This document shows, one piece after another, positions 37,065-63,607 of a stretch of DNA of 64,000 bases. Source of the DNA: Heptranchias perlo (taxonomy: Eukaryota); contig NC_090366.1 of the NCBI RefSeq assembly GCF_035084215.1, forward strand, positions 13,826,001 to 13,890,000, given 5' to 3'. A model generated the notes under the pieces. The model was not told where the DNA came from. It made no database searches and was given only the letters and a program-made list of their open reading frames with translations. The translations under genes and the position numbers were made by a program. The stretch's first letter is position 1, and the number at the start of each line of letters is the position of its first letter.

Positions 37065-37110
37065 ATGACATCCTTAAGAACGCTTTTCCTGACGCTGATT
37101 TTGTTCCAAG
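37065..37110 (+). CDS. CD22/Siglec-like receptor: signal-peptide exon (exon 37054-37110)
   Basis: tttatttcag acceptor, ATG 37065, MTSLRTLFLTLILFQ, phase-1 donor CAAG|gtaggc joining in frame to DVLG-YDW. Confidence 0.8.
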
Positions 37111-37279
37111 GTAGGCACTCTTATGACTGTTCATTCACAGCAATTATCATAAAGTGGCTTTAATGCAGAGAAACATCCCAAGAGGAGACGAGGAGGCGAG
37201 GGAGGGTTGGAAGAGCTTAGCTGAAAAGATGGATTTAAAGGTGGGAAGGAAGGTAGGAAGATAGAGGGGCTTTGGGAGG

Positions 37280-38590
37280 GAGAGCAGGAGAGTGGGATTA
37301 GACTGGGTGGGATATTAAAGGGTACGGGGAGAGTGGGATTAGACTGGGTGGGATATTGAAGGGTACGGGGAGTGAGGGGAGAGTGGGATTAGACTGGGTG
37401 GGATATTAAAGGGTGTGGGGAGTGAGGGGAGAGTGAGATTAGACTGGGTTGGATATTAAAGGGTGTGGGGAGTGAGGGGGAGAGTGGGATTAGACTGTGT
37501 GGGATATTGAAGGGTGTGGGGAGTGAGGGGGAGAGTGGGATTAGACTGGGTGGGATATTAAAGGGTGTGGGGAGTGAGGGGAGAGTGGGTTTAGACTGTG
37601 TGGGATATTGAAGGGTGTGGGGAGTGAGGGGAGAGTGGGATTAGACTGGGTGGGATATTAAAGGGTAGGGGGAGTGAGTGGGAGAGTGGGATTAGACTGG
37701 GTGGGATATTAAAGGGTATGGGGAGTGAGGGGAGAGTGGGATTGGACTGGGTGGGATATTAAAGGGTACGGGGAGTGAGGGGGAGAGTGGGATTAGACTG
37801 GGTGGGATATTAAAGAATACGGGGAGTGAGGGGAGAGTGGGATTAGACTGGGTGGGATATTACAGGGTATGGGGAGTGAGGGGGAGAGTGGGATTAGACT
37901 GGGTGGGATATTACAGGGTATGGGGAGTGAGGGGGAGAGTGGGATTAGACTGGGTGGGATATTATGGGGTATGGGGAGTGAGGGGAGAGTGGGATTAGAC
38001 TGGGTGGGATATTACGGGGTATGGGGAGTGAGGGGAGAGTGGGATTAGACTGGGTGGGATATTACAGGGTATGGGGATGAGGGGAGAGTGGGATTAGACT
38101 GGGTGGGATATTAAAGGGTACAGGGAGTGAGGGGAGAGTGGGATTAGACTGGGTGGGATATTACAGGGTATGGGGATGAGGGGAGAGTGGGATTAGACTG
38201 GGTGGGATATTAAAGGGTACAGGGAGTGAGGGGAGAGTGGGATTAGACTGGGTGGGATATTACGGGGTATGGGGAGTGAGGGGAGAGTGGGATTAGACTG
38301 GGTGGGATATTACGGGGTATGGGGAGTGAGGGGAGAGTGGGATTAGACTGGGTGGGATATTACAGGGTACAGGGAGTGAGGGGAGAGTGGGATTAGACTG
38401 GATGGGATATTAAAGGGTACAGGGAGTGAGGGGAGAGTGGGATTAGACTGGGTGGGATATTAAAGGATACGGGGAGTGAGGGGAGAGTGGCATTAGACTG
38501 GATGGGATATTAAAGGGTACGGGGAGTGAGGGGAGAGTGGGATTAGACTGGGTGGGATATTAAAGGGTACAGGGAGTGAGGGGAGAGTGG
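37280..38590. repeat. G-rich 50/51-bp minisatellite (~26 copies)
   Basis: Unit gggagagtgggattagactgggtgggatattaaagggtacggggagtgag(g). Confidence 0.94.
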
Positions 38591-38625
38591 AGGTGCTGTA
38601 TAAATGCATGTTCTTGTTGCTATAG

Positions 38626-38967
38626 ATGTCCTTGGCTATGACTGGGACGTGAAGACGCCTGGGAACATCACTGGGATTGAAGACTCCTGCGTGGTGATCC
38701 CTTGTACCTTCCAGTGTCCCGGAAACCCCAATGCCGTCATGTGGTTGAAGGGAGACAAGACCAGTGGGATACAAGTGATCAACTCCACCGGGAAACCAGA
38801 CTCTGCCTTCGAAGGTCGGGCCCAATTCCTTGCTAATTGGAAAACAGAGAAAGATTGCACCTTAAAGATAAATAAACTAAGGAAGAGCGATAAGGGAACA
38901 TATTACTTTCGAATGGAACGGAACATTAAGTATTCAGACCCAAAGGGAGTCACGATAGATTTTTCTG
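38626..38967 (+). CDS. Siglec-like exon: V-set domain 1
   Basis: tatag|...G|gtaagt, phase 1-1; WDV, SCVVIPC, KDCTLKI, DKGTYYFRME (essential Arg), KYS. Confidence 0.93.
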
Positions 38968-39109
38968 GTAAGTTTAACTGCATTTTGCATCAGCCACGAT
39001 GAAAAGCAGGGCAGGCTCGAGGGGCTGAATGGCCTCCTCATGTTCCTATTTCTTAATGTGATAACTTCATTACAGCCCCGATGTGAGATTTCTGTGCTTT
39101 GTTTTGATA

Positions 39110-39735
39110 GAATCTTACAGCACAGAAGGAGGCTATTCGGCCCATCGTGCCTGTGCCAGCTCTTTGGAAGAGCTCTCCAATTAGTCCCACTCCCCCCCTG
39201 CTCTTTCCCCAAAACCCTGCAAATTTTTCCTTTTCAAGTATTTATCCAATTCCCCCTTTGAAAGTTATTATTGAATCTGCTTCCACCGCCCTTTCAGGCA
39301 GCGCATTCCAGATCAGAACAACTCGCTGCGTAAAAAAACATTCTCCTCATCTCCCCCTCTGGTTCTTTCGCCGATTATCTTAAATCTGTGTCCTCTCGTT
39401 ACCGACCCTCCTGCCACTGGAAACAGTTTCTCCTTATTTACTCTATCAAAACCCTTCATGATTTTGAACCCCTCGATTAAATCTCCCCTTAACCTTCTCT
39501 GCTCTAAGGAGAACAATCCCAGCTTCTCCAGTCTCTCCGCATCACTGAAGTCCCTCATCCCTGGTCCCATTCTGGTAAATCTCCTCCACACCCTCTCCAA
39601 GGCCTTGACATCCTTCCTAAAGTGCGGTGCCCAGAATTGGAGACAATACTCCAGCTGAGGCCTAACCAGTGTTTTATAAAGGGTTTAGCATAACTTCCTT
39701 GCTTTTGTACTCTATGCCTCTACTTATAAAGCCCA
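39110..39735 (-). mobile_element. CR1 3' fragment
   Basis: ERVWRRFTRM...RRLRGDLIE. Confidence 0.85.
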
Positions 39736-39895
39736 AATGTTGGCTCGTGTGGAGCATAAACACCAGCATAGACCAGTTGGGCCGAATGGCCTGTTTCTGA
39801 GCTGTAGTTTCGATGTTGCCGGGTGATTTTTACTCTGTTCACGCACGCAGTCTGCATTCAATAACGTTGTGTCTCTCCTGACTGTTTCCCAAAAG

Positions 39896-40189
39896 ACGCA
39901 CCGAGTTTAATAAACATATCAACACCTGCGAGGATGATCGAGGGAGAGGAAGTGAGTTTAGTTTGCTCCGTGAAGTATCTGTGCGCTGACCTTCTCCGAT
40001 GGTACAGCTTTGAGGGTTTAAACCGGTCGACTTCGACCGAAACCAAAGGCACAGCTCAAAATGGATGGATTACCAGCCGTACGTTGAGTTTTGTCCCTTC
40101 TTACAAGGATGACGGGAAGTCGCTGAGCTGTGGACTTCAGTCAACAATGGGCGAGTCTCACAGAAAAAACATCACTTTAAACGTGGAAT
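39896..40189 (+). CDS. Siglec-like exon: C2-set domain 2
   Basis: ag|...T|gtaagt; LVCSVKYLC (extra interdomain Cys), LSFVPSYKDDGKSLSC. Confidence 0.9.
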
Positions 40190-40259
40190 GTAAGTAAACT
40201 GGGCTCAGCTGAAAGATTACTTTCCGTATCGAGTTCGAGCTCGGGGCGGGTATGCGGCA

Positions 40260-41130
40260 GGTGTCAGGAGGTCGTGGGTTCGAGCCCCCACTCCAGAGAC
40301 TCGAGCCCCATAATCCCAGGCCGACACTCCCCAGTGCCCAGTACTGAGGGAGCGCCGCACTGTCGGAGGGGCAGTACTGAGGGAGCGCTGCACTGTCGGA
40401 GGTGCCGTCTTTCGGATGAGACGTTAAACCGAGGCCCCGTCTGCCCCTCTCAGGTGGGATGTAAAAGATCCCACGGCCACTATTTCGAGGAAGAGCAGGG
40501 GGGAGTTCTCCCCGGTGTCCTGGGGCCGATATTTATCCCTCAACCAAAAAACAGATTGGTCGGTTAATAATTTTTATCATTGGACTACTGCGTTCAGTTC
40601 TGGGCACCGCACCTCAGGAAGGATATATTGGCCTTGGAGGGGGTGCAGTGCAGATTCACCAGAATGATACCGGGGCTTAGAGGGTTAAATTCCGAGGACA
40701 GGTCGCACAGACTGGGCTTGTATTCCCTCGAGTGTAGAAGATTAAGGGGTGATCTAATCGAGGGGTTTGAGATGATTAAAGGATTCGATAGGGTCGATAG
40801 AGAGAAACTATTTCCTCTGGTGGGGGGAGTCCAGAACAAGGGGGCAGAACCTTAAAATTAGAGCCGGGCCGTTCAGGGGTGATGTCGGGAAGCACTTCCT
40901 CACACAAAGGGGAGTGGGAATCTGGAACTCTCTCCCCCAAAAAGCTGTTGAGGCCGGGGGTCAATTGGAAATTTCAAAACTGAGATTGATCGATTTTTGT
41001 TGGGTGAGGGGATTAAGGGTTACAGAACCAAGGCGGGTAAATGGGGTTAAGATACAGATCAGCCATGATCTAATTGAATGACGGAACAGGCCTGAGGGGC
41101 TGAATGGCCTCCTCCTGCTCCTATTGTCCT
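40260..41130 (+). mobile_element. DeuSINE fragment (40260-40560) followed by CR1 3' fragment (40580-41130)
   Basis: Similarity to other copies in the window. Confidence 0.85.
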
Positions 41131-41307
41131 ATCTCATTGCTGTATCTGCGACCTTGCTCCTATGAATTTCCCTTCATTGGCTCCGAAGCGTATTGGGAGG
41201 TCCTAAGGCAGTTTTTCCCTATTCCTCCTGTGCTCGGTGTGCGCCCAACACTGACCCTGTCCATCGCCTCGAGTTAACATGCTTACTGAATTCTTTTTGT
41301 CTCTCAG

Positions 41308-41568
41308 ATGCCCCTAAGGATGTTTACATTGCTTCCTCTCGCTTTACACCAATCACTAAGGGTGTCACGATCACATTAAGATGCATGTTCTCAACCAGTA
41401 ACCCACCAGTAACTACCTACAAATGGACAGGGAACAGCCATTGGACTCGATCTAGAACAAGACAAACATATGTGACTCCTGCATTTCATGGCAATCAAGA
41501 ATACACGTGTGAAGCATCTAATTCAGTTGGAACAACCTCCTCCGATAAAATCAAACTGGTAATATTAG
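41308..41568 (+). CDS. Siglec-like exon: C2-set domain 3
   Basis: ctcag|...G|gtatgt; YAPKDV, TLRC...SNPPVTTYKW...YTCEASNSVG. Confidence 0.9.
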
Positions 41569-41579
41569 GTATGTATCAA

Positions 41580-42980
41580 GGCCTTCCATCTCCCACCCTC
41601 CGTAAACTCCAGCTCATTCAAAACTCTGCTGCCCCCGTATCCTAACTCGCACCGAGTCCCGTTCACCCATCACCCCCTGTGCTCGCTGACCAACATCGGC
41701 TCCCGATCCGGGAACGCCTCGATTTTAAAACCATCATCCTCGTGTTCAAATCCCTCCATGGCCCTCACCGCCCCCCTCCCTATCTCTGTAACCTCCTCCA
41801 GCCCCTCACCCCTCCCTATCTCTGTAACCTCCTCCAGCCCCTCACCCCTCCCTATCTCTGTAACCTCCTCCAGCCCCTCACCCCTCCCTATCCCTGTAAC
41901 CTCCTCCAGCCCCTCACCCCTCCCTATCTCTGTAACCACCTCCAGCCCCACACCCCTCCCTATCCCTGTAACCTCCTCCAGCCCCTCACCCCTCCCTATC
42001 CCTGTAACCTCCTCCAGCCCCACACCCCTCCCTATCTCTGTAACCACCTCCAGCCCCACACCCCTCCCTATCCCTGTAACCTCCTCCAGCCCCACACCCC
42101 TCCCTATCTCTGTAACCTCCTCCAGCCCCACACCCCTCCCTATCCCTGTAACCTCCTCCAGCCCCACACCCCTCCCCACCTCTGTAAACTCCTCCAGCCC
42201 CACACCCCTCCCTATCCCTGTAACCTCCTCCGGCCCCACACCCCTCCCTATCTCTGTAACCTCCTCCAGCCCCACACCCCTCCCTATCTCTGTAACCTCC
42301 TCCAGCCCCTCACCCCTCCCTATCCCTGTAACCTCCTCCAGCCCCTCACCCCTCCCTATCTCTGTAACCTCCTCCAGCCCCACACCCCTCCCTATCCCTG
42401 TAACCACCTCCAGCCCCACACCCCTCCCTATCCCTGTAACCACCTCCAGCCCCACACCCCTCCCTATCCCTGTAACCTCCTCCAGCCCCACACCCCTCCC
42501 TATCTCTGTAACCTCCTCCAGCCCCACACCCCTCCCTTTCTCTGTAACCTCCTCCAGCCCCACACCCCTCCCTATCCCTGTAACCACCTCCAGCCCCACA
42601 CCCCTCCCTATCCCTGTAACCTCCTCCAGCCCCACACCCCTCCCTTTCTCTGTAACCTCCTCCAGCCCGACAACCCTCCGAGATCTCTGCACTCCTCCAA
42701 TTCTGGCCTCTTGTCCATCCCCCGATTTCCATCGCTCCACCATTGGCGGCCGTGCCTTCAGCTGCCTGGGCCCTAAGCTCTGGAATTCCCTCCCTAAACC
42801 TCTCCGCCTCTCTCTCTCCTCCTTTAAGACGCTCCTTAAAACCTACCTCTTTGACCAAGCTTTTGGTCACCTGTCCTAATATCTCCTTATGTGGCTCGGG
42901 GTTAAATTTTGTCTGATTTACGCTCCTGTGAAGCTCCTTGGGATTTTACTATGTCAAAGGTGCTATATAAATGCAAGTAG
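41580..42980 (+). mobile_element. L2 3' fragment with internal 36-bp unit expanded ~25 times (41774-42668)
   Basis: KLQLIQNSAA, then (PPYLCNLLQPHT)n, then normal L2 end. Confidence 0.9.
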
Positions 42981-43159
42981 TTTTGTTCTATCTCATATTT
43001 AAGCACTTGTTCCACATTTATCTTTAACAAAAATGTTTTATTCCCTCCAGTTTCCTCCTCTCCTGTAGACTTTTAATTTTCCTGGACTCCAGTGCATTCC
43101 TTCCCCTCCCCTAGGGACACATCATGGCCGACATTAATACCTAGGACAACCCACCAGAT

Positions 43160-43450
43160 CATAGAATGATACAGCACAGAAACAGGCCATTCGGCCCAAC
43201 TGGTCCATGCTCCACACGAGCCTCCTCCCTCCCTACTTCCTCTCACCCTATCACCATATCCTTCTATTCCTTTCTCCCTCATGTGTTTATCCAGCTTCCC
43301 CTTAAATCCATCTACACTATTCACCTCAACTACTCCTTGTGGGAGCGAGTTCCACATTCTCACCACTCTCTGGGTAAAGAAGTTTCTTCTGAATTCCCTA
43401 TTGGATTTATTCGTGACTCTCTTATGTTGATGGGCCCCCTAGTTATGACA
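43160..43450 (-). mobile_element. CR1 3' end
   Basis: VVRMWNSLP...FKGKLDKHM on - strand. Confidence 0.82.
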
Positions 43451-43565
43451 ATACATTATTGATCCCCCAAGTGATTTTAATTGATTATTTCCATCCTAAC
43501 CCTTCACATGTTGTGCCTGGCTTCAAAGTTCTTGTTGGCCCTCACTCAGACCTTGTCTCTTACAG

Positions 43566-43901
43566 AGGGCAAGACCTGGGCAGTGTGGACCCCGCTCTCA
43601 CTGACAGCCCGGGAACATTCGTGCGTGACAATCCCCTGCCAATACAGACACCGCGGTGAAATGAAGAATTCGATTTGGTTAAAAGGGCACAATTACCATG
43701 GAGCTCGAGTGTATCAAAGCAACGGAGAGATTAACGCTAATTATTCAGGCCGCGTGGAGATACTTGGAGGTGTGGAAGACAATAGCTGTACCTTGAAGAT
43801 AAAGAATTTAACAGTGGAAGACAGCGGGAAATATTATTTCCGAATGGAAACAGCCAGCAATAAATGGTCATCACCGACTGGTGTCAATCTTTTGGTATCT
43901 G
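43566..43901 (+). CDS. Siglec-like exon: V-set domain 2 (Ig domain 4)
   Basis: tacag|...G|gtgagt, phase 1-1; TWAV, SCVTIPC, NSCTLKI, DSGKYYFRME (essential Arg), NKWS. Confidence 0.93.
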
Positions 43902-43949
43902 GTGAGTGTGTCAATAAAATTCTGCATTTCTAGCTTCTATTTTCTATAC

Positions 43950-45185
43950 GGTGTCAGCCTTGACTCAGTCTCTGAGTCGGGAAGTCGTGGGTTCGAGCCC
44001 CCTTTCCAGAGACTCGAGCCCCGTAATCCAGGACGACACTCCCACAGTGCCAATACTGAGGGAGCACTGCGCTGTCGGAGGGTCAGTACTGAGGGAGCAC
44101 TGCGCTGTCGGAGGGTCAGTGCTGAGGGAGCGCTGCGCTGTCGGAGGGTCAGTACTGAGGGAGCGCCGCACTGTCGGAGGGTCAGTACTGAGGGAGCGCC
44201 GCACTGTCGGAGGGTCAGTGCTGAGGGAGCGCCGCACTGTCGGAGGGTCGGTACTGAGGGAGCGCTGCACTGTCGGAGGGTCGGTACTGAGGGAGTGCCG
44301 CACTGTCGGAGGGTCAGTACTGAGGGAGCGCTGCACTGTTGGAGGGTCAGTACTGAGGGAGCGCCGCACTGGCGGAGGGTCAGTACTGAGGGAGTGCCGC
44401 ACTGTCGGAGGGTCAGTACTGAGGGAGCGCTGCACTGTCGGAGGGTCAGTACTGAGGGAGTGCTGCACTGTCGGAGGGTCAGTACTGAGGGAGCGCTGCA
44501 CTGTCGGAGGGTCAGTACTGAGGGAGCGCTGCACTGTCGGAGGGTCAGTACTGAGGGAGCGCCGCACTGTCGGAGGGTCAGTACTGAGGGAGCGCCGCAC
44601 TGTCGGAGGGTCAGCACTGAGGGAGCGCCGCACTGTCGGAGGGTCAGTACTGAGGGAGCGCTGCACTGTCGGAGGGTCAGTACTGAGGGAGCGCTGCACT
44701 GTCGGAGGGTCAGTACTGAGGGAGCGCTGCACTGTCGGAGGGTCAGTACCGAGGGAGCGCTGCACTGTCGGAGGGTCAGTACTGAGGGAGCGCCGCACTG
44801 TCGGAGGGTCAGTACCGAGGGAGCGCCGCACTGTCGGAGGGTCAGTACTGAGGGAGCGCCGCACTGTCGGAGGGTCTGTACTGAGGGAGCGCTGCACTGT
44901 CGGAGGGTCAGTACTGAGGGAGCGCCGCACTGTCGGAGGGTCAGTACCGAGGGAGCGCCGCACTGTCGGAGGGTCAGTACTGAGGGAGCGCTGCACTGTC
45001 GGAGGGTCAGTACTGAGGGAGCGCCGCACTGTCGGAGGGTCAGTACTGAGGGAGCGCTGCACTGTCAGAGGTGCCGTCTTTCGGATGAGACGTTAAACCG
45101 AGGGCCCCGTCTGCCCTCTCAGGTGGGACATAAAAGATTCCGTAGCACTGGAGCAGGGGAGATCTCGCTGGTGTCCTGGCCAACG
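43950..45185 (+). mobile_element. DeuSINE with ~31 copies of the 33-bp unit
   Basis: Head, array 44050-45070, core. Confidence 0.9.
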
Positions 45186-45809
45186 TTCCTCCCTCTCCCC
45201 ATGAACATTGGCATGGCAGCGACTCACACCTCTGACAGCACCTCCCTCCCAAACCCCGCGGCCTCCACCACCTAGAAGGACAAGGGCAGCAGGCGCACGG
45301 GAACAACGCCACCTCCGAGTTCCCCTCTACGTCACACACACATTGGAAATATATCGGCCGTTCCTTCATCGTCGCTGGGTCAAAATCCTGGAACTCCCTC
45401 CCTAACAGCACTGTGGGAGAACCGTCACCACACGGACTGCAGCGGTTCAAGAAGGCGGCTCACCACCACCTTCTCAAGGGGCGACGAGGGATGGGCAATA
45501 AATGCCGGCCTCGCCAGCGACGCCCACATCCCCCAGAATGAGTAGTAAAAATAACAGATTAAATACTCGCCCTTTGTTCTAAACGGACGAAAGTCTGGAT
45601 TGGAAACACTCAACCTTCAGTCCATTTTAAGAGGGAAGATATTATTTCTTACCGTTTGTTGCTCCAACATTGCCATCTGCTGTCATTGAAGCAGAACAGC
45701 AGGCCATAGGAACAGGAGGAGGCCATTCAGCCCCTCGAGCCTGTTCCCCCATTCAACGAGATCATGGCTGATCTGTACCCTAACTCCATCTACCCCGCCT
45801 TGGCTCCAT

Positions 45810-47398
45810 GGGGGACAAATTGGATTGGGCCTGTTTTTGGGCGGGGGTAGCACGATCTGCTATTACCCAATGGTCCCTGTGACGGGCAGGACGAGACTTT
45901 CGTCAGGCCTGAGGACTCACCTGCAATCCGCGTTGGAAATCAGCGTCGAACGAGGATTCCATGCAGTTCGCACTTTCCGCCAGCAGGGGGAGCGCCAATC
46001 CCTTAAAGGCAGGCTGTCTGTTAGAAATCTCTTAAAGGTAGCTGGTACCTGTTATTTGCTGAATATAACAGCCTGCTGCCTGCACGGAGTCTGAACGGAG
46101 ATCAGGCATCGCACACGTAAAGCACAGATGCAGCTCCCATCCCTATGTTTACACACTGATGAGTTATGTTAAAACATTGAATAAAGGTTGCGCACCAATA
46201 AATCCCACATCCTCCAATCTGCATGCCACACCTCACCAATCTGCCAATCTGAGACTCCGAGCACCAAGGTTCTCTGCTGATGCACTAGAGGCCTTGGTGC
46301 AAGAGGTGGACAGAAGGAGGGGCGTCCTATATCCACGGGGGGTGGGGAGAGCAAGAGGCCCTCCAGACATACACCCAAAAGGTAGTGGGAGGCAGTAGGG
46401 GACGAAGTCAATGCCAGGCGCACAGCATCACGAACATGGATGCAGTACAGGAAGAAGTTCAATGCTTTGACACGAGTGGTCAAGGTGAGTGAGGTCAACT
46501 GTCAAGTGGTGTCTCCTACCAACTGCACCACACACGACACCCCCATCACCCACATACCAACAAACCCTTTCCATCAGTACTCAACCCTCTCACCCTTACA
46601 CATTACCACTGTTGCAAGCCGCCCACGCACAACTCACAGGCCACACACACACTGGCAGCTATTCAACCATGATAGGCACATCACCCAGACACACGCCCCG
46701 CTTCCTTGCAGGAGAAGCTGGCACATAACAGCGGCAGTGGCATTTAGCCCCTCGAGCCTGTTCCGCCATTCGATCAGATCAGGGTGGACCTGTGACCTAA
46801 CTCCATATACCCGCCTTAGCCCCATATCCCTTAATACCCTTGGTTCACAGAAAGCTATCAATCTCAGATTCAGAATTCTCAATTGAGCTGGCATCAACTA
46901 CCGTCTGCAGAACAGCGTTCCAAACTTCTCCCACCCCTTGCGTGTAGAATCATTTCCTAACTTCACTCCTGCACGTCCTGGCTTTAAATGTTAGCCTATG
47001 TCCCCACGTCCTTGTATTCAAGTGTAGGAGACCGCCAGAAGCCAATAAACTGTAAATCCTGCATGGTCCCTTTAAATAGCGCCAGTGGGGGGGGTCCTCC
47101 AGGCACTCTAAGACACGTTCAGATGGTCGGGGTTAAGACTGTGCGTTGAGTTGAGCGTTAAGTCCCAAAATGGCGTCTATCACTTTAAATCAGCGTTGTA
47201 CTCTGATTGCAGCCATTTTCTCCCTACTTTACATGATTCCAGCGTTCGTTATCTGCGCCTGCGCTAACTCCTATACCAAGATGGCGTCTGGCGCACGTCA
47301 CTCTGGAAACGTGCGTGCGCACCCAGGACGCCATCTTGGATGTCGAAGAGGCCGCTGAGCGCCGAAACAACGGGCGTTACACGGCCCAATTTAGCGCC
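45810..47398 (+). mobile_element. Harbinger-like DNA transposon remnant with a Myb/SANT-type DNA-binding exon, inserted in a CR1 3'UTR
   Basis: RAPRFSADALEALVQEV...WEAVGDEVNA...RTWMQYRKKFNAL at ~46255-46484, donor gtgagt, next exon EKLAHN at 46711; imperfect terminal inverted repeats; host CR1 (-) 45705-45809 resumes at ~47400-48130. Confidence 0.7.
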
Positions 47399-48239: not shown

Positions 48240-48597
48240 ATGTCGGAAACATGGCAGCCAATTTGCGCACAGCAAGCTCCCACAAACAGCAATGTGATAA
48301 ATGACCCAGATCATCTGTTTTAGTGATGTTGGTTGAGGGATAAATATTGGCCCCAGGACACCCGGGGAGAACTCCCCCCTTGCTCTTCTTCGAAATAGTG
48401 GCCGTGGGATCTTTTACGTCCCACCCGAGAGGGGCAGACGGGGGCCTCCGGTTTAACGTCTCATCCGAAAGTGCGGCGCTCCCTCAGTACCGGACGTCGG
48501 GAGAGTCGGCCTGGGATTATGGGGCTCGAGTCTCTGGAGTGGGGGCTCGAACCCACGACCTTCTGACTCTGGGGCGAGAGAGAGAGAGAGAGAGAGC
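48240..48597 (-). mobile_element. DeuSINE
   Basis: Reverse complement of the SINE with (ga)n head. Confidence 0.85.
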
Positions 48598-48649
48598 TAT
48601 TTCAAAATATTCCGGAGCAATCCTTGAATTCCGTTGGTCTATTCCACAG

Positions 48650-48955
48650 AGAAGCCAGAGAAACCAGAGATCGAAGCTCCGGAGAGTATCACAGAGGGGA
48701 AAACTGCCACTGTGACCTGTACTGTGAAGAGCTTCTGCTCCGAAGACATTCCTGTTTTGGCGTGGCTCTTCCCATATCCCAACAGCAGCACTTCATCCGA
48801 GACCCAGAGGGACAACAGGGATAACATGTGGATTTACTCCCGCGGCCTCACATTTATCCCGACATACGAGGAAAGGGATCAGACGCTGAAGTGTCAGGTT
48901 GTCTTTGGAAAAGCGACAGCTTCAGCTGCAAGCGAGATCCAACTAAACATCAAAC
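48650..48955 (+). CDS. Siglec-like exon: C2-set domain 5
   Basis: ccacag|...C|gtgagt; VTCTVKSFC (extra Cys), LTFIPTYEERDQTLKC. Confidence 0.92.
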
Positions 48956-50988: not shown

Positions 50989-51270
50989 ATCGTCCCAGAA
51001 ACATCACCATCTCACTGACGGTAAACGGGAAAACAGGAGGTCACAGTATGAAAGAAAGCGATGTTGTCACTTTGATTTGCTCCACTCACAGCAGTAACCC
51101 AGCAGTCAGCGATTACAACTGGTACAAGGATGGAATTCAGGTCGGCAGAAACCACGATAAGACACTACGGTTCAGTTCAATCACTTACACTGACTACGGG
51201 GCATACTCCTGCCAGGCTAACAACGAGGTGGGGAGTGGCAATTCAGAGGACCTCACTCTGAGGGGCAAGT
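50989..51270 (+). CDS. Siglec-like exon: C2-set domain 6
   Basis: ttcag|...T|gtgagt; RPRNIT, TLIC...SNPAVSDYNWYKDG...DYGAYSCQANNEVG. Confidence 0.92.
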
Positions 51271-52665: not shown

Positions 52666-52748
52666 TCCTTTCTTAGAAAATGAACGTCAAGGTAATTCGG
52701 CCTGTCGACAGAAAAGTGAAACGGTCCAACTATTGAACTCTGTTTCAG

Positions 52749-53030
52749 ATCGGCCAAGGGATTTTCACATTTCTTACATTGTGAATGGTGAGATCGTTGA
52801 GTTCCTACGTGGTATTAGAGCAGGCGACCAGCTAAATATATCGTGTGTGAGTGCGAACAGCGACCCGGCAGTCTCTGGATACGCCTGGTACAACTCTGAA
52901 CGCAGCATTGTTCGTCAATCGTCACTTCAGTTTCTAAGCATTACTGAGAAGGACAGAGGGGGTTACCACTGTCAGGCATCAAATGAAGTAGGAACAGGGA
53001 TCTCCAGCACCATCAACATAGAAGTGCTTT
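52749..53030 (+). CDS. Siglec-like exon: C2-set domain 7
   Basis: ttcag|...T|gtgagt; NISC...SDPAVSGYAWY...DRGGYHCQASNEVG; same length (282 nt) as domain 6. Confidence 0.92.
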
Positions 53031-53109
53031 GTGAGTAGTCTACACCGTCCTTTCTGAATCTTGAGTATCTGCTCTTTTGTGTCTCTCTCATCAGTTAAAC
53101 GAATTTCTA

Positions 53110-54290
53110 GATGTTCGTGGTTTCGAGCTCCCGCTCCAACGACCTGAGCCCCATAATCCAGGCCGACACTCCCCAGTTTCAGGACTGAGGGAGCGCTGTA
53201 TTGTCGGAGGGTCAGTACTGAGGGAGTGCTGCACTGTCGGAGGGTCAGTACTGAGGGAGCGCTGCACTGTCGGAGGGTCAGTACTGAGGGAGCGTTGCAC
53301 TGTCGGAGGGTCAGTACTGAGGGAGTGCCGCATTGTCGGAGGGTCAGTACTGAGGGAGCGCTGCACTGTCAGAGGGGCAGTACTGAGGGAGCGCCGCACT
53401 GTCGGAGGGTCAGTACTGAGGGAGCGCCGCACTGTCGGAGGGTCAGTACTGAGGGAGTGCCGCACTGTCGGAGGGTCAGTACTGAGGGAGCGCTGCACTG
53501 TCGGAGGGTCAGTACTGAGGGAGTGCCGCATTGTCGGAGGGTCAGCATTGAGGGAGTGCTGCACTGTCGGAGGGTCAGTACTGAGGGAGCGCTGCACTGT
53601 TGGAGGGTCAGTACTGAGGGAGTGCCGCACTGTTGGAGGGTCAGTACTGAGGGAGTGCCGCACTGTCGGAGGGTCAGTACCGAGGGAGCATGGCGCTGTC
53701 GGAGGGTCAGTACTGAGGGAGTGCCGCACTGTCGGAGGGTCAGCACTGAGGGAGCATGGCGCTGTCGGAGGGTCAGTACTGAGGGAGCACCGCACTGTCG
53801 GAGGGTCAGCATTGAGGGAGTGCTGCACTGTCGGAGGGTCAGTACTGAGGGAGTGCCGCACTGTCGGAGGGTCAGTACTGAGGGAGCACCGCACTGTCGG
53901 AGGGTCAGTACTGAGGGAGTGCTGCACTGTCGGAGGGTCAGTACTGAGGGAGCGCTGCACTGTCGGAGGTGCCGTCTTACAGATGAAACATTAAACCGAG
54001 GCCCCGTCAGCCCTCTCAGGTGGACATAAAAGATCCCACGGCCACTATTTCGAAGAAGAGCAGGGGGGAGTTCTCCCCGATGTCCTGGGGCCGATATTTA
54101 TCCCTCAACCAGCGTCACTAAAAAAACAGATGATCTGGTCATTTATCACATTGCTGTTTGTGGGATCTTGCTGTGCGCAAATTCGCTGGCATGTTTCCCA
54201 CTTTACAACAGTGACCACACTTCAAAAAAGTACTTCATTGGCTTTGGGACGTCCTGAGGTTGTGAAAGGTGCTGTAGAAATGCAAGTTCT
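53110..54290 (+). mobile_element. DeuSINE with ~24 copies of the 33-bp unit
   Basis: Array 53183-53968, complete core and L2-like tail. Confidence 0.9.
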
Positions 54291-54291
54291 C

Positions 54292-54568
54292 ACTGTACCT
54301 GCCCTGGGAGTGTTTGATGGGACAGTGTAGAGGGAGCTTTACTCTGTATCTAACCCTGTACCTGCCCTGGGAGTGTTTGATGGGACAGTGTAGAGGGAGC
54401 TTTACTCTGTATCTAACCCTGTACCTGCCCTGGGAGTGTTTGATGGGACAGTGTAGAGGGAGCTTTACTCTGTATCTAACCCTGTACCTGCCCTGGGAGT
54501 GTTTGATGGGACAGTGTAGAGGGAGCTTTACTCTGTATCTAACCCTGTACCTGCCCTGGGAGTGTTTG
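54292..54568. repeat. 63-bp minisatellite (~4 copies)
   Basis: Same unit as 7996-8968. Confidence 0.92.
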
Positions 54569-54699
54569 GTTGGGTGGAAATATTTCAAGTGCTGCATTTC
54601 CACACCCAACATCTCGTCCGCTTTAAATGTCCCCCAATTCTCGCCTTTCCCTGTAATATGTTTGAGGCAGTTTTAACTGAAGAACATTCTCCTTTGCAG

Positions 54700-54966
54700 A
54701 TCCTCCCAGAGACGTGAATGTAGTCCTTTTTGGCTCTGCTATAGATGGTAAATTCATTACATTGCAATGTCAATCTGATGCCAAACCTCAGGCAGGTTGG
54801 TACAGATGGAGAAAGACCTGCGAAGGTGATTCCACAAACCTCGGCAGTATTACCCATCAATTAACGTTCCAAGTTTCTGTCAGTGATGCATCCTGTGACT
54901 ATTACTGTACAGCAGGCAATACAATCGATGAAAAGATGTCCCAACCAAAACGTTTTACTGTACAGT
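54700..54966 (+). CDS. Siglec-like exon: C2-set domain 8 (extra Cys pair)
   Basis: ttgcag|...T|gtaagt; YPPRDV, TLQC...YRWRKTC...SCDYYCTAGN. Confidence 0.9.
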
Positions 54967-54979
54967 GTAAGTATCAACA

Positions 54980-55755
54980 GTGTGATATACCTTCTACATA
55001 GCCTATAGAAAGTGATATACCTTCCACACAGCCTATAGAGTGTGATATACCATCCACCCAGCCTATAGAGTGTGATATACCTTCCACCCAGCCTATAGAG
55101 TGTGATATACCTTCTACCCAACCTATAGAATGTGATATACCTTCCACCCAACCTATAGAGTGTGCTATACCTTCCACCCAACGTATAGAGCGTGATATAC
55201 CTTCCACCCAACCTATAGAGTGTGATATACCTTCCACCCAACCAATAGTGTGATATACCTTCCACCCAACCTATAGAGTGTGATATACCTTCCACCCAAC
55301 CTATAGAGTGTGATATACCTTCCACCCAGCCTATAGAGTGTGATATACCTTCCACCCAACCTATAGAGTGTGATATACCTTCCACCCAACCTATTGAGTG
55401 TGATATACCTTCCACCCAACCTATAGAGTGTGATATACCTTCCACCCAACCTATAGAGTGTGATATACCTTCCACCCAACCTATGGAGTGTGATATACCT
55501 TCCACTCAACCTATAGAATGTGATATGCCTTCCACCCAACCTATAGAGTGTGATATACCTTCCACCCAACCTATAGAGTGTGATATACCTTCTAGACAAC
55601 CTATAGAGTGTGATATACCTTCCACCCAACCTATAGAGTGTGATATACCTTCCACCCAACCCATAGAGTGTGATATACCTTCCACCCAACCTATCGAGTG
55701 TGATATACCTTCCACCCAACCTATAGAGTGTGATATACCTTCTAGACAACCTATA
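54980..55755. repeat. 30-bp minisatellite tgtgatataccttccacccaacctatagag (~26 copies)
   Basis: Starts ~14 bp after the exon donor. Confidence 0.95.
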
Positions 55756-55759
55756 CACC

Positions 55760-56150
55760 TCCAATTTAAGAACCTCATCCTTGAGTTCAAATCCCTCCAT
55801 GGCCTCCTCTTCCCTATCTCTGTAACCTCCTCCAGCCCCTACGACCCTCCGAGATCTCTGCGCTCCTCCAATTCTGGCCACTCGTGCATCCCCCGATTCC
55901 CATCGCTCCACCATTGGCGGCCGTGCCTTCAGCTGCCTGGGCCCTAAGCTCTGGAATTCCCTCCCTAAACCTCTCCGCCTCTCTCTCCTCCTTTCAGACG
56001 CTCCTTAAAACCTACCTCTTTGACCAAGCTTTTGGTCACCTGTCCTAATATCTCCGTCCTTGCTTTGGTATCCATTTTTGTCTGATTATTCCTCTGTGAA
56101 GCACTGTGTAAGGTTTTTCTATGTTAAAGCTGCTGTATATTGTTGTTGGT
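55760..56150 (+). mobile_element. L2 3' fragment
   Basis: FKSLHGL...; typical L2 end. Confidence 0.82.
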
Positions 56151-56294
56151 GTCATTGTATTTCTGGAACTCTTTTTATTTCAGATTGTTCTCATTATCAT
56201 TTTTTTAAATAATTGCCAACGCCTGGTCTATTCTCAATGATATTTTGGAGATGGATTAACTGGACAAATGTTTTAACAAATTAATTCTTCACAG

Positions 56295-56561
56295 ATAAGC
56301 CCAGAGATGTGAAAATCATTTCTTCAGGTTCAGAGAGAGAAGAGTCTTTAGTTTCTTTAAGTTGTAAAAATAATGCGAATCCTCCAGTATATGACTATAC
56401 TTGGATGAAGAGATGTAACAGAATCCCCTACAATCTACAGCAATATAAATATTCAATTACAATCAAAATTACAAGTGATGATGCGCTTTGTGACTATTAC
56501 TGTACAGCAAAGAATGCAGTTGGACATCAAGATTCTCCAAACATACGCATTAATGTGAAGT
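56295..56561 (+). CDS. Siglec-like exon: C2-set domain 9 (extra Cys pair)
   Basis: cacag|...T|gtaagt; YKPRDV, SLSC..NANPPVYDYTWMKRC...LCDYYCTAKN. Confidence 0.9.
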
Positions 56562-56574
56562 GTAAGTATCTACA

Positions 56575-58972
56575 ATGTGATATACCTTCCACCCAACCTA
56601 TAGAGTGTGATATACCTTCCACCCAACCTATAGAGTGTGATATACCTTCCACCCAACCTATAGAGTGTGATATACCTTCCACCCAACCTATAGAGTGTGA
56701 TATACCGTCCACCCAACCTATAGAGTGTGATATACCGTCTACACAACATATAGAGTGTGATATACCTTCCACCCAACCTATAGAGTGTGATATACTGTCT
56801 ACACAACATATAGAGTGTGATATACCATCTACCCAACCTATAGAGTGTGATATACCTTCCACCCAACCTATAGAGTGTGATATACCTTCCACCCAACCTA
56901 TAGAGTGTGATATACCTTCCACCCAACCTATAGAGTGTGATATACCTTCCTCCCAACCTATCGAGTGTGATATACCTTCCACTCAACCTATAGAATGTGA
57001 TATACCTTCCACCCAACCTATAGAGTGTGATATACCTTCCACCCAACCTATAGAATGTGATATACCTTCCACCCAACCTATAGAATGTGATATACCTTCC
57101 ACCCAACCTATAGAATGTGATATACCTTCCACCCAACCTATAGAATGTGATATACCTTCCACCCAACCTATAGAATGTGATATACCTTCCACTCAACCTA
57201 TAGAATGTGATATACCTTCCACCCAACCTATAGAATGTGATATACCTTCCACCCAACCTATAGAGTGTGATATACCTTCCACCCAACCTATCGAGTGTGA
57301 TATACCTTCCACCCAACCTATAGAGTGTGATATACCTTCCACCCAACCTATAGAATGTGATATGCCTTCCACCCAACCTATAGAATGTGATATGCCTTCC
57401 ACCCAACCCATCGAGTGTGATATACCTTCCACCCAACCTATAGAGTGTGATATACCTTCCACCCAACCTATAGAATGTGATATACCTTCCACCCAACCTG
57501 CAGAATATGATATACCTTCCACCCAATCTATAGAATGTGATATACCTTCCACCCAACCTATAGAGTGTGATATACCTTACACCCAACCTATAGAATGTGA
57601 TATACCTTCCACCCAACCTGCAGAATATGATATACCTTCCACCCAACCTATAGAGTGTGATATACCTTCCACCCAATCTATAGAATGTGATATACCTTCC
57701 ACCCAACATATAGAATGTGATATACCTTTCACCAACCTATAGAATGTGATATACCTTCCACCCAACCTATAGAGTGTGATATACCTTCCACCCAATCTAT
57801 AGAGTGTGATATACCTTCAACCCAACCTATAGAGTGTGATATACCTTCCACCCAACCTATAGAGTGTGATATACCTTCCACCCAACCTATAGAATGTGAT
57901 ATACCTTCCACCCAACCTATAGAATGTGATATACCTTCCACCCAACCTATAGAATGTGATATACCTTCCACCCAACCTGCAGAATATGATATACCTTCCA
58001 CCCAATCTATAGAATGTGATATACCTTCCACCCAACCTATAGAGTGTGATATACCTTCCACCCAATCTATAGAATGTGATATACCTTCCACCCAACATAT
58101 AGAATGTGATATACCTTTCACCAACCTATAGAATGTGATATACCTTCCACCCAATCTATAGAGTGTGATATACCTTCAACCCAACCTATAGAGTGTGATA
58201 TACCTTCCACTCAACCTATAGAGTGTGATATACCTTCCACTCAACCTATAGAGTGTGATATACCTTCTACTCAACCTATAGAATGTGATATACCTTCCAC
58301 CCAGCCTATAGAGTGTGATATACCTTCTACACATCCTATAGAGTGTGATATACCTTCCACCCAGCCTATAGAGTGTGATATACCTTCAACCCAACCTATA
58401 GAGTGTGATATACCATCCACTCAACCTATAGAGTGTGATATACCTTCTACTCAACCTATAGAATGTGATATACCTTCCACCCAGCCTATAGAGTGTGATA
58501 TACCTTCTACACAGCCTATAGAGTGTGATATACCTTCTACACAGCCTATAGAGTGTGATATACCTTCCACCCAGCCTATAGAGTGTGATATACCTTCCAC
58601 CCAACTTATAGAGTGTGATATACCTTCCACCCAGCCTATAGAGTGTGATATACCTTCTACACATCCTATAGAGTGTGATATACCTTCCACCCAGCCTATA
58701 GAGTGTGATATACCTTCTACTCAACCTATAGAATGTGATATACCTTCCACCCAGCCTATAGAGTGTGATATACCTTCTACTCAACCTATAGAATGTGATA
58801 TACCTTCCACCCAGCCTATAGAGTGTGATATACCTTCCACCCAGCCTATAGAGTGTGATATACCTTCTACACAGCCTATAGAGTGTGATATACCTTCTAC
58901 ACAGCCTATAGAGTGTGATATACCTTCCACCCAGCCTATAGAGTGTGATATACCCTCTACACAGCCTATAGA
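56575..58972. repeat. 30-bp minisatellite (~80 copies)
   Basis: Same unit as 54980-55755. Confidence 0.95.
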
Positions 58973-59340
58973 GACCTGATAGAGGTCTTTAAGATTATGA
59001 AGGGGTTCGATAGGGTAGACGTAGAGAAGGTGTTTCCACTTGTGGGGGAGACCAGAACTAGGGGGGCCATAAATATAAGATAGTCACTAATAAATCCAAT
59101 AGGGAATTCAGGAGAAACTTCTTTACCCAGAGAGTGGTGAGAATGTGGAACTCACTCCCACAAGGAGTAGTTGAGGTGAATAGTGTAGATGGATTTAAGG
59201 GGAAGCTGGATAAACACATGAGGGAGAAAGGAATAGAAGGATATGGTGATAGGGTGAGATGGAGTAGGGAGGGAGGAGGCTCGTGTGGAGCATAAACACC
59301 GGGATAGACCAGTTGGGCCGAATGGCCTGTTTCTGTGCTG
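58973..59340 (+). mobile_element. CR1 3' end
   Basis: FFTQRVVRMWNSLP and 3'UTR. Confidence 0.85.
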
Positions 59341-59493
59341 TTAATTCCACGTAACCTTGGTGCTCTCCTGCACAAGGGGAAGGGGGATTAACAGCGGGAG
59401 TGTCAGGAGAGGACGAGGGTGTGTGGGGGATGTGTTCCTAATGCTCAGCCGCATCTTCACCCTGCCTGAATCGTGCTTCATTTAACTTTGCAG

Positions 59494-59763
59494 ATTCTCC
59501 GAAAGACGTAAGGGTTACCCGTAGGTCACCTACGGGAGAGGTGAAGGAAGGAGACAAGGTTATCTTGAGTTGTAGCTCAACAGGCAATCCACGACCTCAG
59601 TACAACTGGTATAAGGACAGCCCTGACACCCGATCCATAAAAGAGGGCAGCCCAGAACTCATATTTAATCTGATCCGTTGGGACGATTCTGGGACGTATT
59701 ACTGCAAAGTGACGAACGAGATAGGAAGTGCCAACTCAAAACAGTTCCCCATTGACGTGATCT
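59494..59763 (+). CDS. Siglec-like exon: C2-set domain 10
   Basis: ttgcag|...T|gtgagt; EGDKVILSC..GNP..YNWYK...DSGTYYCKVTNEIG. Confidence 0.93.
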
Positions 59764-59824
59764 GTGAGTATTTGGAATTGAGGAACTGGTCTCGTCCACG
59801 AGACTTCACCCCTTATTAAAGGAA

Positions 59825-60575
59825 TCGGCCTCAGCTCCCCGCAGACCGTTCGCAACCTTGGCGTCCTATTTGACCCTGAGATGACCACCCGGCCCCATAT
59901 CCGCTCCGTCACCAAGGCCGCCTAATTCAGCCTCCGTGACGTCGCCCGTCTCCGCCCCTGCCTCAGCTCATCTGCCGCTGAAATCTCCGTCCGTGCTTTT
60001 GGTACCTCCAGACTCGACTATTCCAATGCTCTCCTGACCGGCCTCCCACCTCCCAACCTCCGTAAGCTCCGGCTCATCCAAAACTCTGCTGCCCCCGTAT
60101 CCTAACTCGCGGCAAGTCCCGTTCACCCATCACCCCCTGCGCTCGCTGACCTACATCGGCTCCCGGTCCGGGCAACGCCTCGGTTTTAAAATCCTCATCC
60201 TCGTTTTCAAATCCCTGCATGGCCCCCTCGCCCCCCCACTCCCTATCTCTGAAACCTCCTCCAGCCCGACAACCCTCCGAGATCTCTGCCCTCCTCCAAT
60301 TCTGGCCTCTTGTCCATCCCCCGATTCCCATCGCTCCACCATTGGCGGCCGTGCCTTCAGCTGCCTGGGCCCTAAGCTCTGGAATTCCCTCCCTAAACCT
60401 CTCCGCCTCTCTCTCTCCTCCTTTAAGACGCTCCTAAAAACCTACCTCTTTGACCAAGCTTTTGGTCACCTGTCCTAATATCTCCTTATGTGGCTCAGGG
60501 TTAAATTTTTGACTGATTTACGCTCCTGTGAAGCGCCTTGGGACGTTTTACTTCATTGAAGATGCTGTAGAAATG
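59825..60575 (+). mobile_element. L2 3' fragment
   Basis: RNLGVLFD...SRLDYSNALL...; L2 tail. Confidence 0.85.
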
Positions 60576-60620
60576 CCCGTTCCATCTAATGCTTCTGTGT
60601 ATCTTTGCTTCTTGTATCAG

Positions 60621-60896
60621 ATGGTCCGAGATATGCCAAAGTATCGACCTCATCACCAATGGAAGTGATAATGGAAGGGGACAATGTGACGTTAACTTGT
60701 AGCAGTGACGGTAATCCTCCAGTCAACAGGTACCGATGGTTCAGGACCCAAGGAGATTCTACGATTAACCTAGAGCGACCCAGCAAAGACCTGACCTTAT
60801 ACGGAATCACTCGGGAGCAGGAGGGTCTGTACTTCTGTGAGGCGAGCAACAGAGTCCAAACTCAACGCTCAGAGGGACAAAGGATAGAAGTTCTCT
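60621..60896 (+). CDS. Siglec-like exon: C2-set domain 11
   Basis: atcag|...T|gtaagt; EGDNVTLTCSSDGNPPV..YRWF...EGLYFCEASN. Confidence 0.93.
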
Positions 60897-60961
60897 GTAA
60901 GTATCCTTAATCCAAATTATTATTCGCTGTTGGGTTTCATGCATTGACTTCCATCGAGCCC

Positions 60962-61935
60962 ACAGCACAGAAACAGGCCATTCGGCCCAACTGGTCCATC
61001 CCGGTGTTTATGCACCACACGAGCCTCCTCCCTCCCTACTCCATCTCACCCTATCACCATATCCTTCTATTCCTTTCTCCCTCATATGTTTATCCAGCTT
61101 CCCCTTAAATCCATCTACACTATTCACCTCAACTACTCCTTGTGGGAGCGAGTTCCACATTCTCACCACTCTCTGGGTAAAGAAGTTTCTCCTGAATTCC
61201 CTATTGGATTTATTAGTGACTATCTTATATTTATGGCCCCCTAGTTCTGGTCTCCCCCACAAGTGGAAACATCTTCTCTACGTCTACCCTATCGAACCCT
61301 TTCATAATTTTAAAGACCTCGATCAGGTCACCCCTCAGTCTTCTCTTTTCTACAGAAAAGAGCCCCAGCCTGTTTGGCCTTTCCTGACAAGTTTATCTTC
61401 TCAGTTCTGGTATCATTCTTGTGACTCTTTTTTGCACCTTCTCCAGTGCCTCTATATCCTTTTTATAATATGGAGACCAGAACTGTGCCCAGTGCTCCAA
61501 GTGTGGTCTAACCAAGGTATATGGAGACCAGAACTGTGCACAGTGCTCCAAGTGTGGTCTAACCAAGGAATATGGAAACCAGAACTGTGCCCAGTGCTCC
61601 AAGTGTGGTCTAACCAAGGTATATGGAGACCAGAACTGTGCACAGTGCTCCAAGTGTGGTCTAACCAAGGAATATGGAAACCAGAACTGTGCCCAGTGCT
61701 CCAAGTGTGGTCTAACCAAGGTTCGATACAAGTTTAACATAACTTCTCTGCTTAACAATTCTATCCCTCTGGAAATGAATCCCAGTGCTTGGTTTCCCTT
61801 TTTATGTCCTTATTAACCCTTGTCGCTACTTTCAGTGATTTGTGTATCTGTCCCCCCAGATCCCTCTGCTCCTCTATCCCGTTTAGACTCTTATTATCCA
61901 AGCAGTGTGTGGCCTCCTTGTTCTTCCCACAAAAA
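60962..61935 (-). mobile_element. CR1 3' fragment with 51-bp tandem expansion
   Basis: ORF 61393-61758 ([14 protein letters not shown].)x5. Confidence 0.86.
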
Positions 61936-62614
61936 TGTGCCGCCTCAAACCTTGACTCTTCATCACAGACTGGTTTGTACCCACTCTGAGACACTGGTCC
62001 AGTTGTAAAGGAGCCTGCGAGCCATGTGATAGAAACACATGGAAATGTTTGTTAGACGTCCCCCAGTGAGGCCAGGAAAACCGCACGTCCGATCCCGGGT
62101 CTGTGCTGAGTCAGCCGGTCTTAGCCACGGCCCCGTCTCCCACCTGTCCCCCCCCCCCACGCTCCAGAGGGCAAGATCAAGGTGGGCCGTGGTGCCTTCC
62201 ACAGTCAAATAGCTCCTTGGCACTCAATGCCCAGGGCTCCACAATTGAGGAACAAGCCAATTGCACCCTGGGGGCCAGATCCCAGAGTGAAAGATTGAAC
62301 TCATTGGGTAGCTCGTTTCAGGGAGCCGGCACAGGCACGATGGGCCGAATGGCCTTCTCCTGTGCTATGATACTATGAGCTGTTGCCTTCAGAATGGGAG
62401 GCAAGCACATCCATTGCTATTTCCTGTTAAATTTCGAGGAACTTTTGCACTGTATGTTTCGTGATAAAAGTGGGGGTCGGGGGGCATTTGGTAGCAAATT
62501 GACCTTTGAGTTGCAAGATTCTGGGTTCAAGCCCCACTCTGGGCCCTAAGCACAAAGTTTAGGCCGACATTCTCGGTGGAGGGCAGCACCTTCCGGTGAG
62601 AGGTTAACTTTTTT

Positions 62615-63430
62615 CTAATTCATCCTCGGGGATGTGGGCGTCGCTGGCCAGGCCCGGCATTTATTGCCCAGCTCCTAGATGCCCCTTGAGAAGGTGGTGG
62701 TGAGCCGCCTTCTTGAACCACTGCGGCCCGTGTGGTGACGGTTCTCCCGCAGCGCTGCTCGGGGAGGGGGAGTTCCAGGATTTTGACCCAGCGACGACGA
62801 AGGAACGGCCGATGTATTTCCAAGTCGGGGCGGTGCGTGTGACTCGGAGGGGAACTCGGAGGTGGCGTTGTTCCCATGCGCCCGCTGCCCTTGTCCTTCT
62901 AGGTGGTGGTGGTCACGGGATTGGGAGGTGCTGTCGAAGAAGTTAATCCTGTGGACAGTAGACACTGCAGTCATGGTGCGCCGGTGGTGGAGGGAATTTA
63001 AGGAGGTGGGCTGACTGCCGATCGAGCGGACTGATTCGCCCCTCGATAGCGCCGTGGGCATCTAGGGGATGGGCAATAAACACCAGCCTTGCTGGCGACG
63101 CCCACATCCCCAGAATGAAGCCAAAAAAAAATCACCAGCGAACAGCCCCACATCTGATGGAGGGACGGTCATTGATGAAGCAGCTGAAGATAGTTTGGGC
63201 CTAGGACGGTGCTCTGAGGAACTCCTGGGGCTGAGATGATCGGCCTCCAACGACCGCTACCATCTCCCTTTGCGCTCGGTGTGACTCCAGGCACTGGAGG
63301 GTTTCCCCCTCTGATTCCCATTGATCAATTTTACCAGGGGTTCCTTGGTGCCACACTCGGTCAAACGCTGCCTTGACGTAGCAGGCGGTCACTCTCGCCT
63401 CACCTCTAGAATTCAGCCTCTTGTGTCCGT
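62615..63430 (-). mobile_element. Degraded, rearranged second-family LINE fragments
   Basis: KAAFDRVWHQG and 3' end similar to 9855-11012. Confidence 0.75.
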
Positions 63431-63519
63431 TTTTGGACCAACGAGGCCTGAGGCCTAGTGGTTCAGGCATCCGATTTGTATCTCTATACTCTTGCAATTT
63501 CCTCTTATCTTTCTTTCAG

Positions 63520-63607
63520 CCAGGCACACCAGGTTGATAATCATTGTTGTCATTGTTCTGCTGGCCTTCCTCACTGTGGTAGTTGTCGTCTTCCTCATTC
63601 TCAGGTG
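63520..63607 (+). CDS. Siglec-like exon: transmembrane segment
   Basis: Pyrimidine tract + ttcag|; SRHTR-LIIIVVIVLLAFLTVVVVVFLIL-R; donor TG|gtaagt; in frame with 60621-60896. Not in the ORF track. Confidence 0.9.

Follow-up and report, generated by a model that had tools for sequence, protein, structure and literature searches.

A probable CD22 orthologue with a second, internal V-set domain in the shark Heptranchias perlo

In a 64-kb stretch of the genome of the shark Heptranchias perlo (positions 13,826,001 to 13,890,000 of contig NC_090366.1, our G000:C45; the whole stretch is hereafter called the window), 13 exons on the forward (+) strand between window positions 37065 and 63607 encode a Siglec-type receptor with two V-set domains. 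These two domains belong to one spliced gene, and we give a probability of about 0.7 to the reading that its product is a single CD22 type I protein of 11 immunoglobulin (Ig) domains, in which a CD22 core (domains D4-D11, membrane helix and tail) carries an extra V-C-C unit in front. When the splice sites are followed and the window DNA is translated, an uninterrupted reading frame of 1105 codons results; each of the 12 acceptors is an AG, exons 1-12 have GT donors in phase 1, and exon 13 ends at 63607 on a GT in phase 2. Eleven of the 13 exons are Ig exons and the encoded domain order is V-C-C-V-Cx7 followed by the transmembrane (TM) helix, that is, a type I membrane protein with an N-terminal V-set and then C-type Ig domains, plus a second, internal V-set. 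Exons 2 and 5 scored above the Pfam cut-off for both Ig_CD22 and V-set, while the remaining nine of the 11 Ig exons matched Ig families, and the joined chain is residues 1-1105 of the RefSeq model XP_067831458.1, with an identical start. Given the Pfam matches in all 11 Ig exons, the finding is far beyond chance. No further exons of the Siglec family were found within the window beyond the 13. An earlier sequence-only reading had described 13 GT-AG exons of compatible phases and about 1105 codons, which is borne out, and a V-C2-C2-V-C2x7-TM protein ending at 63607, of which the order stands; the gene however continues past 63607 and the domain behind a CD22 V is of C1 type in human, a set that also gives D5 its best score.

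Exon 4 (41308..41568), coding for the C2-type Ig domain D3, is spliced directly to exon 5 (43566..43901), which codes for the internal V-set V2 (D4) and starts with polar linker residues; intron 4 (41569..43565, 1997 bp) lies between them. It had been anticipated that V2 transcripts starting independently, with none joining 41568 to 43566, would mean two adjacent genes. Exon 5 is contained in contigs from four sequencing runs. Seven contigs cover only 43564-43901 of the interval 43440-43960, with a depth of 0 in the flanking intron bins, and their loose ends correspond to the end of exon 4 on the 5' side in all four runs and to the start of exon 6 on the 3' side in three of the four. The 41568-43566 junction is thus present in the contigs of all four runs, which makes V1 and V2 parts of one gene. 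The longest contig (X1) comprises 2809 letters, 1088 of them before 43564 where 941 coding letters are expected, leaving 147 for a 5' untranslated region, a fit of length only. This evidence is weakened by the four runs deriving from one sample of one study and consisting of contigs whose RNA origin is presumed, none being recorded as RNA, and by the contigs having been aligned to 43440-43960 only, with 30 letters readable per loose end. A processed copy as the source of the spliced contigs was dismissed, a genome search having yielded 67 candidates, of which a single one matched V2 at 100%. Against the protein database, V2 gave one 100% match among 91 candidates, ‘B-cell receptor CD22-like isoform X2 [Heptranchias perlo]’ of 1232 amino acids (aa), and the exon 4-exon 5 join is therefore already contained in an automated model; isoform X1 has 1275 aa.

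Two adjacent genes, for a secreted V-C-C protein and a V-C7 receptor, merged by annotation or by rare read-through, are largely refuted by these joins and would be a highly improbable explanation. Fused models do occur in the family, P0125 containing a membrane helix within the chain as well as an additional signal peptide, and an in-frame ATG at 43508 opens a hydrophobic, leader-like stretch of 20 residues ahead of V2 (43508-43565); this stretch has zero contig cover and is probably an effect of the pyrimidine tract. On the other side, the contigs join exons 4 and 5 and leave 43440-43547 uncovered (contigs prove presence, not absence), intron 4 contains neither a transmembrane exon nor an AATAAA or ATTAAA hexamer and consists for 85% (1707 of 1997 bp) of repeated sequence, including a 36-bp tandem array at 41773-42679, and the identical join is modelled in 12 species. 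Exon 5 moreover starts four codons ahead of its Trp, on polar residues, and lacks the hydrophobic signal-peptide end of the other listed Siglec V exons. A separate leader exon within intron 4 was also considered and rejected: of seven ATG...GT candidates, six lie in repeats and one at the donor itself, and all have weaker donors than exon 1 (37065..37110), the signal-peptide exon, whose ATG at 37065 is also the start of XP_067831458.1.

The single gene is very probably the elasmobranch orthologue of CD22 (Siglec-2), because its tail motifs are in register with those of CD22, its residues 317-625 best match CD22 d1-3, and hepcidin, FXYD and LSR-family matches lie on the same contig. More specifically, human CD22 d1-3 was the best of 70 Protein Data Bank (PDB) matches of residues 317-625 (E 7.9e-38), and V2, D5 (exon 6, 48650..48955) and D6 (exon 7, 50989..51270, alignable to CD22 d3) correspond to human d1-d3 in an alignment that pairs R120, W128 and the inter-domain Cys. 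A genome-wide Ig_CD22 search gave 15 matches, of which V2 ranks first and V1 next. The best Pfam score of D5 was to C1-set, and the domain next to the V in the human CD22 crystal structure is of C1 type (PMC5624926). The X1 tail aligns with the CD22 tails of a rodent, a lizard, a snake and ray-finned fish with five tyrosine motifs in register (IEYASI, VIYGLV, DDYENV, INYTSV and IDYTAI, against VSYAIL, VTYSVL, GDYENV, IHYSEL and VEYVTL in the rodent). Four tail exons are located 2-10 kb past the window (G000:C45:13892099, 13893978, 13894802 and 13899480); in isoform X2 the donor of the third (G000:C45:13894802 onward) is read through, and DYENV and the last two tyrosine motifs are lost. For the stingray orthologue (P0012, 1181 aa), an AlphaFold model (mean pLDDT 77.4, pTM 0.41) in which the domains are beta-sandwiches and the arrangement of domains is unreliable had its highest listed target TM-scores (0.67-0.74) with CD22.

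In human, HAMP, LSR and FXYD are linked with CD22. On the shark contig, two hepcidin matches are found 340-380 kb upstream of the gene (G000:C45:13484361 and 13523731, 39 kb apart). On the downstream side lie two of the four FXYD matches, at about 400 kb, and the top LSR-family match (LSR or ILDR), at 1.56 Mb; the shared neighbourhood is thus loose (0.34-1.56 Mb), and MAG and USF2 were not located. A tree of three-domain modules placed both modules of the shark protein (V1 and V2, each with the two domains behind it) inside a CD22+Siglec-1 clade (100/100) and separated them from CD33-like rows, again at 100/100.

An alternative assignment, a CD22-like paralogue or a chimera such as a Siglec-1-type front joined to a CD22 back, appears improbable. 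It draws on V1, which as a single domain finds its top PDB match in sialoadhesin (E 2e-13, against E 1e-4 for CD22), in an alignment with sialoadhesin d1 that spans the Trp, three Cys, the Arg and the G-strand aromatic, and on a same-strand sialoadhesin-like gene some 120 kb upstream. The approximately unbiased (AU) tests on the origin of module 1 did not reject its grouping with sialoadhesin (p-AU 0.33), but they did not reject M1+M2 (0.28) either, nor module 2 with bony-vertebrate CD22 (0.097). Of the two origins suggested in the earlier reading, gene fusion and module duplication, neither is rejected by these tests. Against a chimera, D2 outscores D5 on the second domain of all five bony-vertebrate CD22s, the tail motif order is that of CD22, no better Ig_CD22 match was found in the genome, and a chimeric origin would leave the identity of the present protein unchanged. 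The upstream neighbour itself (G000:C45:13744342-13750867; L003, L056) is a RefSeq ‘sialoadhesin-like’ model of 278 aa that groups with tetrapod Siglec-1 (94/88); in its third Ig exon a TGA stands in frame at the expected position of the C-strand Trp, and the gene is possibly a truncated Siglec-1.

A search with residues 1-530 of the CD22-like protein returned 36 proteins, 16 of them from sharks and rays. At least two V domains are present in 15 of the 16 elasmobranch models, that is, in 12 of 13 species, so that the two-V architecture, for which a search of other shark genomes had been proposed, is found there at the level of gene models; the exception is S. canicula isoform X2, which begins at domain 2. 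D1 to D7 follow one another colinearly in 10 species, whose models have 11 domains (one Mobula isoform has 12); the Chiloscyllium model is partial, and skate models are V-C-V or contain four V domains. Two models of Rhinoraja longicauda (P0003, P0017), one with the V1-D2 unit three times before V2 and the other V-C-V, represent either a real expansion or a modelling error, and a ‘MAG-like’ protein of Pristis pectinata (P0015) is a shorter two-V paralogue with Gln at the V1 Arg position and a different tail. In a tree of 82 V domains, from which one duplicate Mobula isoform and several distant matches were left out, V1 (100/97) and V2 (98/96) form separate clades; in a tree of 33 three-domain modules, the module 1 and module 2 clades are supported at 100/100 each and both comprise sharks and batoids. 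Because the V1 and V2 clades likewise each hold sharks and batoids, the two-V architecture is, judged from these trees, older than the shark-ray split, a separation that took place roughly 250-300 million years ago. No holocephalan sequence occurred among the named matches of the homologue searches (28 of the 150 profile matches are named).

Both V domains carry the residues expected of a Siglec lectin site, as had been noted from the sequence for Ig domains 1 and 4. V1 (D1) is encoded by exon 2 (38626..38967), which opens with the last, hydrophobic part of the signal peptide, and its signature consists of W22, C37, C42, C93, R111 and Y118; that of V2 consists of W319, C334, C339, Y358, C389, R407 and W415. 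The intra-sheet pair of a Siglec V-set links Cys of strands B and E. This Cys pattern, without an F-strand Cys, is present in both modules together with the extra Cys towards the next domain, the bonds themselves being predicted; the latter Cys was correctly foreseen behind each V and is C159 in D2 (exon 3, 39896..40189) and C456 in D5, both Siglec second domains. In human CD22, the glycan on N101 helps folding and C39-C167 ties d1 to d2, while R120 and W128 contact the sialic acid (PMC5624926).

A multiple alignment of 16 V1-type and 15 V2-type elasmobranch domains was used to compare the two sites. The essential F-strand Arg (R111, R407), aligned with that of sialoadhesin and CD22, is found in 15 of 16 V1 and 15 of 15 V2 domains, and the A-strand Trp in all 16 V1 and 14 of the 15 V2 domains. 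The G-strand aromatic is Tyr or Phe throughout V1 (16/16) and Trp throughout V2 (15/15); a CC' aromatic is seen in none of the V1 and all of the V2 domains (0/16, 15/15), and an N101-type sequon in 0/16 and 14/15, the V2 of Heptranchias perlo itself being the exception. A seven-column hairpin insertion occurs in 7/7 bony-vertebrate CD22 V domains and in 0/31 elasmobranch V domains. Y358 was initially paired with human Y64 by HMMER, an assignment we discarded because this residue falls on the aromatic-x-Gly beyond the hairpin in the multiple alignment; it is taken to be at the position of F71 of human CD22. As a control, the Arg is missing in seven of 24 other Siglec-type V exons of this genome, and it is therefore dispensable for the fold. 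From these comparisons, both V domains probably bind sialic acid. V2 resembles a CD22 site that lacks the specificity filter, and V1 a site that has been tuned separately; since the surroundings of the two sites show consistent residue differences, we infer different glycan preferences.

A CD22 encoded by one gene could alternatively have a single working site, either with V1 as the lectin and V2 as a blocked spacer or with V2 as the lectin and V1 serving another purpose (protein binding or a decoy), which we regard as unlikely. In its favour are the mere four residues from domain 3 to the first Trp of V2, the lack in V1 of the CC' aromatic and the N101-type sequon, the Tyr or Phe that replaces the CD22 Trp there, and the Gln in place of the V1 Arg in one ray paralogue. 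It is countered by the retention of the Arg in 30 of 31 elasmobranch V domains in spite of its being dispensable for the fold, and by conservation, V1 and V2 being the two best-conserved domains with 25 and 27 invariant columns against 0-18 in the others. Human CD22 moreover binds through strands F and G and the CC' loop (PMC5624926), and a preceding domain would not necessarily cover this edge.

Several points nevertheless weigh against a two-site CD22. The orthologue architectures are automated gene models; the A-strand Trp is lost in the V2 of Heterodontus; in Heptranchias the V2 Trp stands so close behind domain 3 that the site may be crowded; and module 2 does not group with bony-vertebrate CD22 in the ectodomain tree, to which it had to be forced for the p-AU given above. 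In human CD22, the C1/C2 beta-hairpin with Y64 dictates alpha2-6 specificity (PMC5624926); as the hairpin is absent from both shark V domains, this specificity is not transferable to them, and the gene is filed as a CD22 orthologue rather than as an alpha2-6-specific lectin.

Between D6 and the membrane, the protein continues with the C2-type Ig domains D7 (exon 8, 52749..53030), D8 (exon 9, 54700..54966), D9 (exon 10, 56295..56561; nearest to D8, profile score 193-195), D10 (exon 11, 59494..59763) and D11 (exon 12, 60621..60896), followed by a transmembrane helix without charged residue (exon 13, 63520..63607). One 30-bp minisatellite lies directly 3' of the paralogous exons 9 and 10 (54979-55755 and 56576-58973), and 33-, 36- and 50-bp tandem arrays are found in other introns of the gene. 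Elsewhere on the contig, 25 of the 28 V-like matches form three clusters at 3.5-14.0 Mb (L003-L028), which include recent near-identical arrays (L019-L025) and matches without the Arg (L011, L012, L015, L016, L022 and L028); these clusters would represent a large shark Siglec expansion.

The usual Siglec has one ligand-binding V domain, at the tip (PMC13358205, PMC6286995). Human CD22 has seven Ig domains with one N-terminal V, whereas the shark gene encodes 11 with two V and an extra N-terminal V-C-C; a single V is found in each of the CD22 models from sturgeon, bowfin, three teleost genera, two lizards and a rodent, and the C1/C2 hairpin belongs to bony-vertebrate CD22 but to neither shark V. 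Siglec-1 has a single V with many more C2 domains behind it and is not known to have an ITIM tail. The shark protein resembles it in its long stalk and in V1, with its sialoadhesin match and aligned Trp, Arg and G-strand aromatic, and differs from it in having two V domains and five CD22-type tyrosine motifs. Two V-set domains are also present in Siglec-12 of primates (PMC6288428), of which a Rhinopithecus model has the Arg in both. Siglec-12 is however CD33-related, with adjacent V domains and a C domain only behind the second, whereas those of the shark gene are separated by two Ig domains, form two whole V-C modules and fall outside the CD33-like group.

A V-domain profile search over 1.84 billion representatives, with a ranking that favours repeats, gave among its best 150 matches 102 with at least two Siglec-type V domains and 50 with at least two full signatures. 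The named multi-V matches include shark V-V models, gar, arapaima, teleosts, elapid snakes and monkey Siglec-12, and are mostly single-species automated models, some of them plainly fused. Shark ‘Siglec-8/12/13-like’ models (P0067, P0073, P0074, P0075 and P0072) in which two or three V domains adjoin, each of them with the Arg, would be a second multi-V Siglec type in sharks. Elapid CD22 models (P0018, P0025 and P0026) have two or three V-C-C-C modules, in whose additional V domains Lys replaces the Arg (other Naja models have one V), and may reflect independent duplication or fused models. In tilapia, two adjacent domains were labelled IgV by prediction (PMC12837193). Passages of the fish Siglec papers PMC7226832 and PMC12837193 make no mention of sharks, and those of PMC8455134, PMC13262535, PMC10768021 and PMC13299070 contain nothing on a two-V CD22; no description of this architecture was found in searches of an open-access library that leaves out most subscription journals. 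Multi-V Siglecs are thus common as predictions and Siglec-12 is a precedent, which makes the present gene less of a surprise; what is distinctive is its support by spliced contigs presumed to be RNA, its lineage-wide conservation and its location in CD22.

By analogy with mammalian CD22, which signals through ITIM-SHP-1 and YENV-Grb2, forms homo-oligomers in cis and is recruited in trans (PMC6286995, where YENV is described as binding Grb2), the receptor would be expressed on B cells and damp B-cell-receptor signalling, its ITIMs recruiting SHP-1 and its YENV motif Grb2. The seven domains of CD22 reach about 300 Å (PMC5624926), and scaling from this value would place V2 at about 34 nm and V1 at about 47 nm from the membrane. 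The inner V2 would then be held by sugars of the same cell and cluster the receptor, while the outer V1 would reach beyond these to sugars on other cells, so that a single molecule could be tethered in cis and in trans simultaneously. Such a division of labour is proposed tentatively, by analogy with Siglec-1, which escapes cis masking through its length (PMC13358205). Equally conjectural is a natural bivalent, bispecific CD22, with two working sites about 13 nm apart that differ in linkage preference, the inner one holding this inhibitory receptor in cis and the unmasked outer one reading ligands in trans.

The gene provides a well-supported CD22 marker for shark B-cell work, and throughout one vertebrate lineage the B-cell Siglec seems to have retained two V domains since sharks and rays separated. 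If only one site works, the second V domain would be an architectural oddity. If both work, an internal V domain can be a lectin, the alpha2-6 hairpin would be dated, and the receptor would be a natural experiment on the parts that cis masking and trans binding play in setting the brake of CD22. Should the bispecific reading be true, cis and trans recognition would be separable by single mutations in one natural receptor, and the missing alpha2-6 hairpin would reflect either the ancestral CD22 site or a loss in cartilaginous fish.

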